From contig NZ_BRVO01000003.1 in NCBI RefSeq assembly GCF_027924185.1, positions 271,968 through 335,967 on the forward strand: DNA of 64,000 bases. The letters are read 5' to 3'. Made by a program: the position numbers and the translations under genes. Under the pieces are notes generated by a model. The model did no database searches and was not told the DNA's origin. It saw only the letters and a program-made list of their open reading frames with translations. Source of the stretch: Neptunitalea lumnitzerae. Lineage in GTDB: Bacteria; Bacteroidota; Bacteroidia; Flavobacteriales; Flavobacteriaceae. Each line of letters starts with the position of its first letter. The stretch's first letter is position 1. Shown here in pieces: positions 29,756-34,857 of the stretch.

Positions 29756-30766
29756 ATGCAAAATTGTCCTGAAAATTTAATTTATGTTTCTGATACCGAA
29801 CCTGGTTACACACGCATTAAAAGCGGGAAAAAATTCATCTATTTAGATCCGCAGGAAAAGACCGTAACCGCACAGAACACACTAAGACGTATACAGTCAC
29901 TTACCATACCTCCCATGTGGGAGAAAACATGGATATGTACCCATGAAAACGGACATATACAGGCTACTGGTAACGACCAACGCAAGCGTAAACAATATAT
30001 TTACCATGTAGATTGGGTTACATACAGACAGCAATGCAAGTTTGATAAGGTGTATGACTTTGGTAACTCCATTGATAAAATGCGTAGAGCCATAAACAAA
30101 GACCTTAAACTACCCGATTTTAGTTATAAAAAAACATTGGCTCTAGCTGTAAAATTAATGGATTGCAGCTACCTAAGAATTGGTAACGACTTTTACTTAA
30201 ATGAAAATGAAACCTATGGACTAACTACTATCAGAAGAAAACATTTAGATATTACCCCCAACAAATTACATATTGAATACAAAGCTAAAAGTAATAAATA
30301 CCGTAAAATAGATATTACTAACAAACGGTTGATTTCCCTTCTGAAAGAAATAAATGAATTACCTGGCTACGAAGTTTTTAGATACAAAGAAGGTGGTAAA
30401 ACGCACAGAATTTGCTCTGAAGATGTAAACAGTTACATAAAAGATATTAGCGGCCAAGATTTCTCTGCCAAAGATTTTAGAACGTGGGGTGGCACGATAT
30501 CAGCCATTGATGAATACCAAAATGCGGTTGACTTTTGTAATAAAGGCAAAAACCGAAAATTAGAAACCGCAATTGTTAGAAATGTAGCAAAAGTACTAGG
30601 TAATACAGTGGCTACTGCTAGAGCTTATTACATTCACCCACAGGTATTAGATAATTTAGTTACACAAGGTATAGCACCCTACGAAGCAAAAACTCCTGCA
30701 AAAAAATATACCAACACCTACCTAAAAAAACATGAGGCTATTGCTTTAACTATATTAGAAAATTAA
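29756..30766 (+). CDS. DNA topoisomerase IB (poxvirus/eukaryotic-like type I topoisomerase catalytic core)
   Basis: 336 aa. Architecture and C-terminal ..FRTWGGTISAIDEY.. / ..TVATARAYYIHPQV.. (S-K-x-x-Y-like active-site tyrosine region) match bacterial TopIB proteins. Confidence 0.65.
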   Translation: MQNCPENLIYVSDTEPGYTRIKSGKKFIYLDPQEKTVTAQNTLRRIQSLTIPPMWEKTWICTHENGHIQATGNDQRKRKQYIYHVDWVTYRQQCKFDKVYDFGNSIDKMRRAINKDLKLPDFSYKKTLALAVKLMDCSYLRIGNDFYLNENETYGLTTIRRKHLDITPNKLHIEYKAKSNKYRKIDITNKRLISLLKEINELPGYEVFRYKEGGKTHRICSEDVNSYIKDISGQDFSAKDFRTWGGTISAIDEYQNAVDFCNKGKNRKLETAIVRNVAKVLGNTVATARAYYIHPQVLDNLVTQGIAPYEAKTPAKKYTNTYLKKHEAIALTILEN

Positions 30767-31448: not shown

Positions 31449-32552
31449 CTATTTACCATGCACAGAAAAAACATCCATCAACTGTTTAGCAATACTTCCA
31501 TTACCAGAAACAGTAATTTCTCCAATTTTTTCTGCAATTTTCTCTACAAACTCCATTTCCTTAAGTTTGAAAAGCATCTCATTCTCTTCCATTAGTTTAG
31601 CTGTGTTCAGCAAACTTCTGGTAGATGCCGTCTCTTCTCTACGAGTAATTACATTGGCCTGTGCTTGCTTTTGCGCAATAAGCACTTGGTTCATAATATC
31701 TTTCATTTCTCCCGTAAGAATTACGTCTCTAATACCACAACTTAAAATTTCTATTCCAAGTTTAGTACCTACGGGTTTAATCTCTGCAAAAACTGCATCT
31801 GCAATACCCTCTTTTTGCTCTAGCAACTCATCTAATGTATAAGCACCTATGTATGCTCTTAAAGCCAATTGCATAGCAATGTAAGCCTGCTTTTCAAAGT
31901 CCTTATTTTCTAGTAAAGCGGTTTCTATGTTCACTACCTTATATTGCGCAAAGAAGTTCACACGAATAGCGGCTTTATCTTTGGTCAACAATTCTTGGCC
32001 AGCAATTTCCATTTGTTGCACACGCATATCAGTTTTCACTATTTTAATGGTAGTATCGTTCTTCCAAAAACGGTACGTACCAGCGCCTAACGTTTTTACG
32101 TAAACATCATCTACAATCATTACTGCCTTTTCAGTTGCTCCAACTTCAAAAACTCTTACATGCTGAGATAGCTCGTATCTACTAAACAACATTTTATCTA
32201 TTTGCTCAGTAATGTAAATTTTACTTTTATCCACTGTTAAAAAGGTAAACTCTTTAAGGGTATTCCAGTAGTAATGAATACCGGTAATTAATACCCCACG
32301 GTATCTACCGTTTTCATACAACAATACAATCTCATTATCCTTTACATCTACCACATGCAACATACTTGCCAGTTGTTTATCTTGTAGCAAAATTTCAGGT
32401 GCTTTGGTAGGCTTAAAAGGGAATCGTTCATCTGCTATGGTTACACTTTCTGCAAAACCAAGCCAGTGTATACCTGCTGTAAGTACACGTTGGTAATCTC
32501 CCTTTTTAAATACCAAACCTACGTTTCCTTTGTTAATTCTAATTCGTTTCAT
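31449..32552 (-). CDS. SPFH/band-7 domain protein
   Basis: 367 aa. Central PHB-like region (..AAIRVNFFAQYKVVNIETA..IAMQLALRAYIGAYTLDELL..) and C-terminal coiled coil. Confidence 0.65.
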   Translation of the reverse strand: MKRIRINKGNVGLVFKKGDYQRVLTAGIHWLGFAESVTIADERFPFKPTKAPEILLQDKQLASMLHVVDVKDNEIVLLYENGRYRGVLITGIHYYWNTLKEFTFLTVDKSKIYITEQIDKMLFSRYELSQHVRVFEVGATEKAVMIVDDVYVKTLGAGTYRFWKNDTTIKIVKTDMRVQQMEIAGQELLTKDKAAIRVNFFAQYKVVNIETALLENKDFEKQAYIAMQLALRAYIGAYTLDELLEQKEGIADAVFAEIKPVGTKLGIEILSCGIRDVILTGEMKDIMNQVLIAQKQAQANVITRREETASTRSLLNTAKLMEENEMLFKLKEMEFVEKIAEKIGEITVSGNGSIAKQLMDVFSVHGK

Positions 32553-33210
32553 GGTTCATTTTTTTGGTTACACATTTTATTTACAACTATCCCGGGTTTT
32601 CTTTAATCATCAAATTATAACAATAATTATCTCTGATTTTCTATATTTATTTGAATAGATATTCTACCAATTCATTCTCTCAATAATCTTGACAAATTTG
32701 GTCTACCTATAAAAATCTTGAAAATCAAGGCAGCAGCGTTGGATTTAGATAAAATACTGTTTGAGCGATAGCGAGTTGTATTTTATCTGTGGCTGGTAAT
32801 GCCGTAGTACTTTCTTAGGTTTTTATAGTAAACCTTGACTTTTTGGTTCGTTTTAGCTCGTACATTCTTATTGTTTTAAGATCTCGTGAATCTTCGATTT
32901 GTGTCAAGACAAAATGAACAAATACATGCTTTTCTTTAACTCTAATAGAAAGTAATGCTCCTAAACTTATCCAAATCATACGGAAAACAAACATTTACTA
33001 TTGGTTGCACGCTTTTGTTACAAATGAACATCTTACTAAAACATAAGACCGTTGATTTTAAACAGCCACATGCGCAGAATACTAAATCGTTCTGTTCTCT
33101 GGTATGCCCCGAACTGTTTTTTAACTAATTGGTTAGGTGGTTAAAAAACCAAGTTCAGAAACATTACTTTTCCTTTCATGGTAATCAGTTTTACAAGATA
33201 ATTAGCTTGA

Positions 33211-33395
33211 GTTAACCTACATCCAACGTGTAGTGCTCTAACCGCTGAGCTACGTATCCAAATAATACGATGGGAGTCGAACCCATGCAAAAAAATCTAT
33301 TGTTCTACCAATTGAACTACGTATTTCAATAATACGACGGGATTTGAACCCGCAACACATAGAGGAGCTATTGATATGGTAATAGCGTACCTTCA
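33211..33395 (-). pseudogene. three tandem degenerate tRNA-like units (tRNA remnants)
   Basis: Minus-strand units at ~33211-33259, 33262-33326 and 33331-33395. The first has acceptor 5' half, D-arm and a 5-bp anticodon stem but no T-arm. The second has acceptor, D-arm (GTTC-AATTGGTA-GAAC) and T-arm (ATGGG-TTCGACT-CCCAT) with the anticodon arm collapsed. The third has a T-arm (GCGGG-TTCAAAT-CCCGT) and poor 5' parts. Confidence 0.4.
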
Positions 33396-34221
33396 AAACC
33401 AGACTGCATATAAAATCATCATACGTCTCCGCAACGTTTTATACAATGGTGCTATTAGAAACACGCAACAAGGTCTGCATTGAAATCTTTAATATCTTAC
33501 TCGATAATCGAGATTGGACACTCCGAGAACCAGCCTCGAAGTAGTTTATGATTGTGTTTTAATTACAATTCAAATATCTATACCATCAGCGCAGTTATTC
33601 TGCGTAGTTGTTTCGAATTATAAATTTTATAGAGAGGATATAAAAAATCCGAAACATTTTGGTTATTAGCTCCGGATTTCTCATTTGATACGTTGTTATG
33701 AAAAGATCCGAAGCCAATAAAACCTTCCTAGTATATGTTGTAATAAACTCTTATATGGATTGCTAAACATCGCTTCTTGTTATTAATTGCTATTTCTGTT
33801 TTTTTGACAGGGCAAAGATGTAAACTATTTTTTAATTACACAAGAAAAATATTTATTTAAAACACTGGTTATCAGTTATTTAAATTTAAAATAGGCAATA
33901 GATTTCCTGTCCGCATATCAGCAGATTAGTATACAATTTAAAATGAGATAGTTACTTAAAAAGTATATTTTCAACAGCTATGTATTTTTTTTGCATAAAT
34001 ATTTTTCATTCCTTCAAAAACATAAAAAAAGCGCTCAATTTTCATTGAGCGCTTTGTTATAAATTAGATGTACTTATATCATTTATCTATTTAAAATCTT
34101 ACAACAAGAACCAAAACGCCCATTCGGATATGCTTTATACCCTGCTAATAGAAATGCCTGTGGCATTGAAAAACTAGTATGTTTACGTATTGTTCTCATT
34201 ATAATGCAAATATATAATTTA

Positions 34222-34857
34222 TTAATTTAATAAAAATAAAACTCCAATATCAAAAGAACCTCTGTCATTTTGAGTAGAAAAACCTGAAGAGGAACCATCG
34301 GCGAAAACATCTGTAAAACCGTATTGCTCATCATAAGCAAAGTAGATACTCGTTTTACTATTAAGTCTAACTTTATACCCTATCCCCACAGCTAAACCAA
34401 CATCCGTAGCATTTAAGGCATCTTTAATATCATTTCCATGTTCATCATCTTCTGCACTAAGCAAAAATCCTGTATACAATCCAAAATTCAAATACCAATT
34501 TCTCCTTCTTCCAAAGTGCCAGTTAGCCATTACCGGAATAGTTACATAGTTTAAACTAAAATCGGTGTAATACATTTCTCCAGTGTCTATGTTTTGCACA
34601 TATCCATTACCCCAACCTTTGGCATCGTATAATAGCTTTGCTTTAAGCCCCCATCTATCTGAAAAATAATACTCTCCTGTAGCTCCAAAGTTAATACCAA
34701 AAGTACCCTCTGTACCACCATTAAGATCTGAGGAATAAATAACAATGGCTCTACCAAAACCAAGGTTAGCTCCTACTTCAAAATCGCCTTGGTCTTGAGC
34801 ATTAGACACTGAAAAGAACCCGGCTACTGCCAGTAAGCTTAAAAAAAGATTTTTCAT
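34222..34857 (-). CDS. outer-membrane beta-barrel protein (porin family)
   Basis: Signal peptide ..SVSNAQ, amphipathic beta-strands, ends ..DIGVLFLLN. Confidence 0.65.
   Translation of the reverse strand: MKNLFLSLLAVAGFFSVSNAQDQGDFEVGANLGFGRAIVIYSSDLNGGTEGTFGINFGATGEYYFSDRWGLKAKLLYDAKGWGNGYVQNIDTGEMYYTDFSLNYVTIPVMANWHFGRRRNWYLNFGLYTGFLLSAEDDEHGNDIKDALNATDVGLAVGIGYKVRLNSKTSIYFAYDEQYGFTDVFADGSSSGFSTQNDRGSFDIGVLFLLN

Follow-up and report, generated by a model that had tools for sequence, protein, structure and literature searches.

What is encoded, if anything, in a gene-free gap of the flavobacterium Neptunitalea lumnitzerae that is strewn with pieces of tRNA? The gap occupies positions 32553-34221 of a stretch of 64,000 nucleotides (nt) of contig NZ_BRVO01000003.1, referred to here as the window. 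An earlier note, made from the bare sequence, had described the gap as lacking any open reading frame (ORF) of 60 amino acids (aa) or more and as holding three tandem, degenerate tRNA-like units, and had offered three explanations: a decayed tRNA gene array, scars of integration or excision at a tRNA attachment site, or a tRNA-derived structured RNA. The lack of ORFs stands, the longest two being 59 and 57 aa, and the third explanation is the correct one. The minus strand of the gap carries a non-coding RNA of approximately 300 nt, upstream of a gene for slipin, a protein of the SPFH (Band_7) type, and this element, far from being genomic debris, is intact and belongs to a conserved, uncurated family of RNAs.

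The tRNA-like pieces are genuine and lie where they had been placed, on the minus strand at approximately 33217-33363, with near-identical acceptor halves (CGUAUU, AAUACG and GAUACG) and a perfect 5-bp anticodon-like stem (CUACA/UGUAG). They do not form three decayed linear units, however; instead they build two complete, circularly permuted, tRNA-shaped modules, in which the acceptor strand 3' of each T-arm pairs with the 5' strand that precedes the next D-arm and forms a capped hairpin (Table 1). What had been taken for the first unit is the D-arm of module 2 with the anticodon-like arm, the second is the D-arm of module 1 with the 3' half of its closing stem, a linker and the T-arm of module 2, and the third is the T-arm of module 1. 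The anticodon arm of the second unit, which had seemed too short, is thus the 3' half of the module 1 closing stem (UCUAU/AUAGA) together with the linker. The feature is also larger than had been perceived, extending approximately 125 nt further in the 5' direction (to about 33484) and including a 3' hairpin at 33204-33182.

Both modules have a canonical T-arm (G53, UUCRA, C61), a canonical D-arm (A14, R15, G18 G19, A21) and U8, and both keep the R15-Y48 Levitt pair along with the T-loop and D-loop nucleotides, as A15-U48 in module 1 and G15-C48 in module 2. Neither has the ends or the anticodon arm of a functional tRNA. The acceptor strands are taken up in the capped hairpins and form no stem of their own ends with a free 3' terminus; module 1 has a closing stem and no anticodon arm, and module 2 has a 5-bp stem but a loop, CGUUGGA, with G in place of U at position 33. 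ARAGORN, one of the checks that had been proposed, found no credible tRNA in the gap. Its single call, an aberrant 85-nt tRNA-Asn (anticodon att) at 33329-33413 on the minus strand, is false and joins the P4 hairpin, the closing stem and the T-arm of module 1.

Two covariance models built with the window excluded, R1 for the 5' domain (from 43 relatives) and R2 for the module, were used to ask whether the window copy belongs to a family. R1 found its sole match in the 64 kb at 33363-33488 of the minus strand, over its full length (model positions 1-128) and with 87.2 bits (E = 5.3e-18). R2 matched module 1 over its full length with 59.2 bits (E = 5.5e-17) and module 2 over model positions 13-66 with 46.1 bits (E = 1.3e-12); the genuine tRNA-Pro genes of the window received 16.6 and 13.7 bits. 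Among the Rfam models, tRNA (RF00005) gave 42.9 bits (E = 4e-7; gathering score 29) to the segment 33262-33326, the middle unit of the linear parse, and YrlA (RF02553) gave 40.2 bits to module 1 (model positions 23-88) and 30.6 bits to module 2, short of its gathering score of 69; both matches are limited to the tRNA-like core of the model. The relatives described below behave alike in Rfam, with YrlA matches under the threshold (31-40 bits) or partial tRNA matches. By the Rfam and R2 scores, the similarity to tRNA is far beyond chance. Rfam holds no family for the whole RNA and gave nothing for the 5' domain. All helices of the window copy are fully paired, and it has everything by which members are recognised, namely P1 to P4, at least two capped permuted modules, a 3' hairpin whose loop reads UUKUAAAAC, and a slipin gene after it.

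Table 1. Features of the RNA locus, in positions of the window; elements of the RNA are written 5' to 3' on the minus strand.
Feature	Position	Strand	Composition or remark
Slipin (SPFH/Band_7) gene, 367 aa	31449-32552	-	Pfam Band_7, E = 9e-29; 100% identical to 'slipin family protein [Neptunitalea lumnitzerae]'
Spacer or leader, 629 nt, from 3' hairpin of the RNA to slipin start codon	32553-33181	-	Poorly conserved relative to other genera
Conserved non-coding RNA core, about 300 nt	33182-33484	-	5' domain, two permuted tRNA-like modules and 3' hairpin; from family alignments and models without the window
5' domain (P1-P4 and probable pseudoknot)	33363-33488	-	R1 match; RNAalifold predicts the same helices
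P1, long-range helix	33484-33480 and 33477-33473 with 33404-33400 and 33396-33392	-	UUCAA and CAGAC with GUCUG and UUGAA
P2, hairpin	33464-33449	-	Invariant; enclosed by P1
P3, long hairpin	33445-33405	-	Enclosed by P1
P4, hairpin	33386-33367	-	
Probable H-type pseudoknot	33391-33389 with P4 loop	-	GGU with ACC; family form GGY / RCC
Module 1, permuted tRNA mimic opened in anticodon loop (YrlA type)	33296-33363	-	
Module 1 closing stem	33363-33359 / 33300-33296	-	UCUAU / AUAGA; followed by 5-nt variable loop GUGUU
Module 1 T-arm	33353-33337	-	GCGGG-UUCAAAU-CCCGU
Module 1 capped acceptor hairpin	33336-33320	-	CGUAUU-AUUGA-AAUACG, then UA
Module 1 D-arm	33317-33302	-	GUUC-AAUUGGUA-GAAC
Module 2, permuted tRNA mimic opened in variable loop	33217-33286	-	
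Module 2 T-arm	33286-33270	-	AUGGG-UUCGACU-CCCAU
Module 2 capped acceptor hairpin	33269-33253	-	CGUAUU-AUUUG-GAUACG, then UA
Module 2 D-arm	33250-33235	-	GCUC-AGCGGUUA-GAGC
Module 2 anticodon-like arm	33233-33217	-	CUACA-CGUUGGA-UGUAG
3' hairpin	33182-33204	-	UAAUUA-UCUUGUAAAAC-UGAUUA; conserved loop motif YUUKUAAAAC
Strong intrinsic terminator of upstream outer-membrane protein gene	34028-34055	-	12-bp stem and U run

The family was assembled from 58 related loci, of which 54 are metagenome loci found by a scan for the 5'-block motif and four come from the neighbourhoods of flavobacterial slipin homologues, where the gaps hold RNAs obviously homologous to the element of the window. The gene orders of these four are RtcB, PrfH, TPR, one tRNA, a gene-free gap of approximately 1 kb and slipin (L110); RtcB, a small unassigned gene, TPR, seven tRNAs, gap and slipin (L107); RtcB, 13 tRNAs, gap and slipin (L109); and TPR, one tRNA, gap and slipin (L108). 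Members have T-loops at constant distances, about +150 and +220, from the 5' motif, and the number of T-loops is two in 38 RNAs, three in 5 and four in 1. Slipin lies 3' of the RNA and on the same strand in every one of the 39 loci for which 1.2 kb or more of downstream sequence is available, and TPR, PrfH or RtcB genes lie upstream in 24 of the 29 with at least 3 kb of upstream sequence, the identities of PrfH and RtcB having been confirmed with NCBIfam. The RNA and slipin stand alone, as in the window, in 5 loci. The family is conserved across the Flavobacteriaceae, and a more divergent form exists in other Bacteroidota.

A second search, in which the pattern of T-loop, capped acceptor hairpin and D-arm was scanned over one genome per species, returned 106 loci, N. 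lumnitzerae not being among the matches. TROVE/Ro60 genes accompany 55 of them, slipin genes 12, and none has both; the loci with either gene are spread over Bacteroidota, Myxococcota, Acidobacteriota and Firmicutes. Most of the 106 are Ro60-linked YrlA RNAs, and the Rfam YrlA model reaches its gathering score in several. In four loci from Bacteroidia (L010, L012, L020 and L058) the module closely precedes a slipin gene of some 367 aa, and a fifth, L033, is an 8-kb locus that ends before any slipin could appear. A large tRNA array often precedes the module in these five. All but L010 have further T-arm modules after the first, which is the chained layout of the window, and have an upstream sequence block in common with it. 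All but L020 have a divergent WYL-WCX regulator gene upstream, fused to PhyH except in L010 (L012 1715-3451, L033 3872-5605, L058 4685-6451 and L010 588-1682; also seen in L115, L130, L148, L156 and L163), and this protein, often a fusion with a PhyH dioxygenase, is a candidate ligand-sensing regulator of the island of RtcB, tRNA array, RNA and slipin.

Several further observations concern the relatives. Many of them have an array of 7 to more than 20 tRNA genes immediately 5' of the RNA (for example L109 1872-3114, L107 3017-3963, L012 3576-4375, L033 5784-7433 and L058 2755-4531). In roughly a dozen loci a tRNA ends immediately before the first base of the RNA (AUCAAG...), an arrangement implying that the two are transcribed together and that the RNA owes its 5' end to tRNA processing; no tRNA adjoins the RNA in the window. 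The 3' hairpin of the window aligns with GAUCAUC-UUUUAAAACU-GAUGAUC and its variants. Just after this hairpin, many relatives carry a conserved CAGCCUGUCACGCUGUAAAAUUGACAAAA block, consisting of a hairpin and a possible pseudoknot, then a further hairpin and a ACCUUGAAAU motif (for example L107 4618-4660, L108 4462-4500 and L109 4476-4510), none of which is present in the window or in a Tenacibaculum-like subgroup. The anticodon-like loops of the last module vary across L107-L164, with CUUUUAA (Lys-UUU-like) seven times, CUCAUAA (Met-CAU-like) five times, and a Leu-UAG-like group, UUUAGGU and variants accompanied by a class II D-arm, several times. These three identities overlap the known targets of anticodon nucleases. 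Outside the Bacteroidota, slipin genes (30-36% identity) with capped permuted tRNA modules upstream on the same strand were seen in L054 (Eubacterium), L056 and L097 (Thermoanaerobaculia), L008, L028, L057 and L060 (Myxococcota) and L087, so that the association spans phyla. The distance from module to slipin is 340-920 nt in L028, L054, L056, L060, L087 and L097, 1.5 kb in L057 and 3.6 kb in L008, and L054 may keep a P2-like GUGUUUC hairpin.

Within the family, the stems of the fold are kept by compensatory changes. When module 1 was aligned over 39 sequences, the window included (alignment A1), 97.7% of the cells were paired and 15 of the 19 pairs showed compensatory changes, a result reached by none of 500 shuffles; slid controls gave 37-52% paired. 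The 5' domain, aligned over the 43 relatives without the window (A3), had 95.3% of the cells paired and compensatory changes in 19 of 39 pairs, again matched by none of 500 shuffles. Pair 105-119 of the pseudoknot is U-A in 22 sequences and C-G in 6. A pairing of AAGGU with ACCUU of the 3' hairpin loop was considered and dropped; the GGY/RCC pseudoknot with the P4 loop covaries instead. There are 31 distinct pairs of arms for acceptor hairpin 1 and 34 for acceptor hairpin 2, and the arms are 92-95% paired with their own partners versus 47-56% with foreign ones; for the hairpin of the last module (34 distinct pairs) the values are 91.7% and 46.6%. This number of distinct arm pairs excludes a very recent common descent without independent substitutions. 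In addition, the invariant G-U pairs identify the slipin strand as the transcribed one.

These data also decide between the permuted and the linear parse. In a test of the Levitt pair, D-loop position 15 was compared with the nucleotide just 5' of the T-stem in the same permuted module, and 79 of the 85 modules have G-C or A-U at these two sites; under the linear parse, 19 of 43 cases do. A linear 'tRNA' can be drawn in the middle of the window because its two acceptor hairpins have the same sequence; in the relatives the hairpin sequences differ between modules, and pairing within linear units fails. The reading as a decayed array of tRNA pseudogenes, or as duplicated attachment-site scars of integrative elements in a rearrangement hotspot, is contradicted. 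That reading draws on the 76% identity of the two modules over 54 nt, on the shared hairpin sequence and the resulting Rfam tRNA score of the middle unit, and on the cap loops of several relatives, which begin with ACCA or ACC and suggest an ancient origin from tandem tRNA genes. It would have to account, however, for stems that are intact in the window and kept by compensatory changes across genera, and for the same ordered elements, including a 5' domain that is not derived from tRNA, at a fixed position upstream of slipin in 58 other loci. The gap contains no integrase and no relic genes, nor did scans of viral contigs with the 5' motif and with a strict acceptor-sequence pattern (0 matches each) or a blastn search of the RNA against plasmids and phages reveal any match, and there is thus no sign of an origin from a mobile element. 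We consider decay or scarring highly improbable. The earlier note had reasoned that conservation of the region in relatives without tRNA homology would speak against an array; the conservation was found, and the homology to tRNA is nevertheless retained. It had also placed outer-membrane beta-barrel genes on both sides; only the right neighbour (34222-34857) is one, and the left neighbour is the slipin gene.

If the element is a conserved RNA, is it a free molecule or a part of the slipin message? Scans for sigma-70 promoters and terminators between the RNA and slipin gave no consistent signal, and the absence of a consistent intrinsic terminator there, in the window and in L108-L110, makes a cis-acting 5' leader of the slipin mRNA the main rival to a free RNA. 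In such a leader, slipin expression would respond to cleavage of the tRNA mimics, by RNase P or Z or by anticodon nucleases, or to the attachment of tRNA-binding factors to them. It would fit that the RNA is always on the slipin strand and that its 5' motif precedes the start codon by 570-940 nt, and there is a precedent for cleavage in the 7-bp acceptor hairpin of YrlA of M. smegmatis, which RNase P cleaves both in vivo and in vitro (PMC4201824). The 250-600 nt from the 3' hairpin to the start codon are, however, poorly conserved and variable in length, which is unusual for an expression platform; slipin could have a promoter of its own in a short, conserved A/T-rich motif that directly precedes the start codon; in many loci the RNA abuts upstream tRNAs and is probably co-transcribed with them; and YrlA-type modules elsewhere are free RNAs. 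On balance we regard the leader as unlikely.

The spacer itself offers little else. A weak terminator-like hairpin lies at 33067-33047. The 11-bp perfect inverted repeat that had been noted in the region exists, with its second arm at 32778-32788 as given and its first arm at 32747-32757, one position away from where it had been put; its arms are separated by 20 nt and lie about 195-235 nt before the start codon. Roughly 0.07 such repeats are expected by chance in the region, no U run follows, and the repeat is not visibly conserved in other genera. The 59-aa ORF, at 32815-32994 on the minus strand, was rejected as a gene; it has no conserved counterpart in relatives, and its translation resembles random sequence.

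From the structure, its conservation, its strand and its linkage to slipin and to repair genes, all of which are observed, we infer that the RNA binds slipin physically and that the pair works in repair. It is likely, in our view, that the RNA is a dedicated partner of slipin and forms the RNA subunit, or the scaffold, of a ribonucleoprotein with slipin that acts in RNA repair or under translation stress. The RNA presents a 5' domain with a probable pseudoknot, followed by two tRNA-shaped modules without free ends, in each of which the T-arm stacks on the loop-closed acceptor stem and the following D-arm, with the closing stem or the anticodon arm, completes the L-shape. A role of the particle in RNA repair or translation stress is suggested by the RtcB, PrfH, TPR and tRNA-array genes with which most relatives pair it, and the arrangement of RNA and slipin is analogous to that of YrlA with the Ro60 ring. 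Independent work points in the same direction. In Anabaena, a tRNA array, rtcB and slipin are jointly de-repressed under translation stress (PMC10272220), and PrfH and RtcB, together with an accessory TPR gene, are established as a repair system for ribosomes and RNA (PMC6514570; PMC9304027).

The protein side of the proposed particle is compatible with a soluble assembly. The slipin sequence has no apparent hydrophobic membrane segment, and its AlphaFold model (pLDDT 78.9) predicts three N-terminal five-stranded beta repeats (residues 1-41, 65-108 and 132-175), an SPFH domain and long helices. Foldseek places stomatin and HflK first for this model (approximately 217-250 columns) and aligns chains of major vault protein over 411-473 columns, with E of 1e-10 to 1e-8 and a query TM-score of 0.38-0.48. 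The lack of a membrane segment, the predicted fold and the Foldseek matches suggest a soluble, vault-like former of rings or cages, which by analogy would suit a multivalent RNA partner. Two other features of this part of the window are apparently unrelated to the RNA: a gene for a bacterial type IB topoisomerase (Topoisom_I and Top1B_N_bact domains) at 29756-30766 on the plus strand, two genes from the RNA, and a match to the Rfam family bxd_1, a long non-coding RNA of Drosophila, at 32345-32424 (plus strand) inside the slipin coding sequence, which at 27.1 bits (E = 0.0038) and with no structure component is almost certainly due to chance.

A number of observations weigh against this proposal and have to be set beside it. 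No RtcB, PrfH, TPR, WYL or Ro60 gene lies within the 64-kb window, and a search of the gap for relics of RtcB, PrfH, TPR and WYL gave noise only, so that a repair role is not readable from this locus itself. The terminator at 34028-34055 is the upstream limit for a promoter of the RNA's own, and a search of 33487-34028 for a Bacteroidetes-type promoter (TAnnTTTG) found none; with no consistent terminator before slipin either, the RNA may be carried on the slipin transcript instead of existing as a free molecule. The window copy is without the optional extra anticodon-like hairpin and the CAGCCUGUCACGCUG motif after the 3' hairpin, both of which occur in many relatives and are missing from several other members, and its anticodon-like loop CGUUGGA is atypical. 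All 54 metagenome loci were fetched with the 5'-domain motif, and the conservation of that motif among them is therefore by construction. Finally, the single-sequence fold of the window copy is no more stable than that of shuffled sequences (z = -0.25).

A more far-reaching picture, which we offer as speculation and think doubtful in its entirety, is that a ring or cage of slipin with a string of end-less tRNA mimics would make up a bacterial vault-like or Ro-like particle. Its anticodon loops (Lys-UUU-, Met-CAU- and Leu-UAG-like in relatives) might act as decoys or sensors for toxins that cut tRNA, or the particle might recruit enzymes that recognise tRNA (RNase P, RtcB, PrfH-bound ribosomes) for repair. 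Slipin would then be a second, independent class of partner for YrlA-type RNAs, with the 5' domain in place of the Ro60-binding stem.

The locus matters for annotation and for the biology of Y RNAs alike. Such loci resemble pseudo-tRNAs and yield false tRNA calls, and without an Rfam family the RNA stays unannotated in hundreds of Bacteroidota genomes. It also bears on what the tRNA-like domain of bacterial Y RNAs is for: a second family in which the same module is multiplied, joined to another, putative protein-binding domain and paired with an SPFH protein in place of Ro60 argues that the tRNA mimic is the effector part. Culturable marine flavobacteria would provide a tractable system for that comparison, and one physical locus joins the components that Anabaena co-regulates under translation stress, namely tRNA arrays, RtcB and slipin.

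Among known systems, tandem (dimeric) tRNA genes and tRNA arrays resemble the RNA in the repetition of T-arm, acceptor and D-arm at tRNA-like spacing, and some of the ACCA caps resemble an encoded 3' end. Chen et al. (2014) caution that dimeric tRNAs can imitate YrlA in searches (PMC4201824), which is why comparative data are required to separate the two readings. Here the acceptor strands pair across the unit boundaries and not within them, module 1 has no anticodon arm, ARAGORN reports no credible tRNA, and the linear parse fails the Levitt-pair and acceptor tests in relatives.

The closest likeness in architecture is to YrlA. The order of variable loop, T-arm, capped acceptor stem-loop, D-arm and a stem replacing the anticodon stem is the same, the identity nucleotides of the T-loop and D-loop and the Levitt pair are kept, and both RNAs have a genomic link to RNA-repair genes (RtcB). 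Module 1 is architecturally indistinguishable from the tRNA-like domain of YrlA, and R2 matches nearly all Ro60-linked YrlA loci over its full length with 40-70 bits, which identifies the module as the same device. Tandem runs of 2-5 YrlA-type modules within 1 kb were seen in Ro60-linked loci (L086, L095, L075, L048, L025, L060 and others), and multiplication of the module is thus not unique to the slipin-linked RNA. These matches and the exact YrlA order of module 1, closed by a stem, are what a canonical YrlA that binds a Ro60/Rsr protein encoded elsewhere in the genome would lead one to expect. That the window RNA is such a YrlA is nonetheless scarcely credible. With 40.2 bits it stays well below the gathering score, 69 bits, and the match leaves out model positions 1-22 and 89-114, the Ro60-binding helix; the Ro60-binding motif GNCGAAN0-1G is absent from 33150-33500 of the minus strand and from all 45 family members examined for it. 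A canonical YrlA would be encoded within about 4 kb of an rsr (Ro60/TROVE) gene; with a confirmed TROVE protein as query, tblastn gave no match at E<=0.01 anywhere in the 64-kb window, the 58 family loci are likewise devoid of TROVE genes, and Ro60 and slipin never occur together among the 106 pattern loci. R1 finds nothing in the Ro60-linked loci, its weak matches being confined to the slipin-linked L058, L010 and L033 of the Bacteroidia. Unlike YrlA, the window RNA has a conserved, pseudoknotted 5' domain of approximately 125 nt and no Ro60-binding stem; in its second module (in relatives also the third and fourth) the opening lies in the variable loop and an anticodon arm is retained; and its partner gene is slipin.

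The vault ribonucleoprotein, composed of major vault protein and vault RNA, offers an analogy and no claim of membership. The predicted slipin shares with it N-terminal beta repeats, an SPFH 'shoulder' and long helices, and both would combine an SPFH-type, putatively cage-forming protein with a small structured RNA. Slipin differs in having only three repeats and no vault repeat at the sequence level, and the RNA is unrelated to vault RNA. TEP1, another vault component, carries a TROVE domain.

The proposal has a precedent in the work of Burroughs and Aravind (2016), who, as summarised by others (bioRxiv 10.1101/312249), predicted for RtcB systems that a 'band-7-associated tRNA', as yet unvalidated, is the RNA cognate to Band-7 proteins, and mentioned that YrlA occasionally adjoins Band-7. 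The likeness, as far as that summary goes, lies in a tRNA-like RNA next to a Band-7/SPFH gene and RtcB, proposed to be the cognate of an RNA-repair scaffold. In the window the tRNA-like RNA does stand beside a Band-7/SPFH gene, on the same strand and 629 nt from its start; RtcB is not a neighbour within the 64 kb, and it is in the relatives that TPR, PrfH or RtcB lie upstream (24 of 29). Measured against the same summary, the RNA described here differs in being a multi-domain molecule of about 300-450 nt with permuted, capped units and a non-tRNA domain first, and authentic tRNAs or arrays lie separately upstream of it in relatives and are absent from the window. The degree of novelty depends on what the 2016 prediction already described, which is compared here by way of a second-hand summary. 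Very probably the RNA-slipin pair of the window is the same biological association, and the RNA would then give the prediction of a Band-7 protein with a tRNA-like RNA its first concrete sequence and structure model: a family in which a dedicated 5' domain is combined with two permuted tRNA mimics, the first of them of YrlA type, and which is tied genetically to slipin and usually to RtcB/PrfH.

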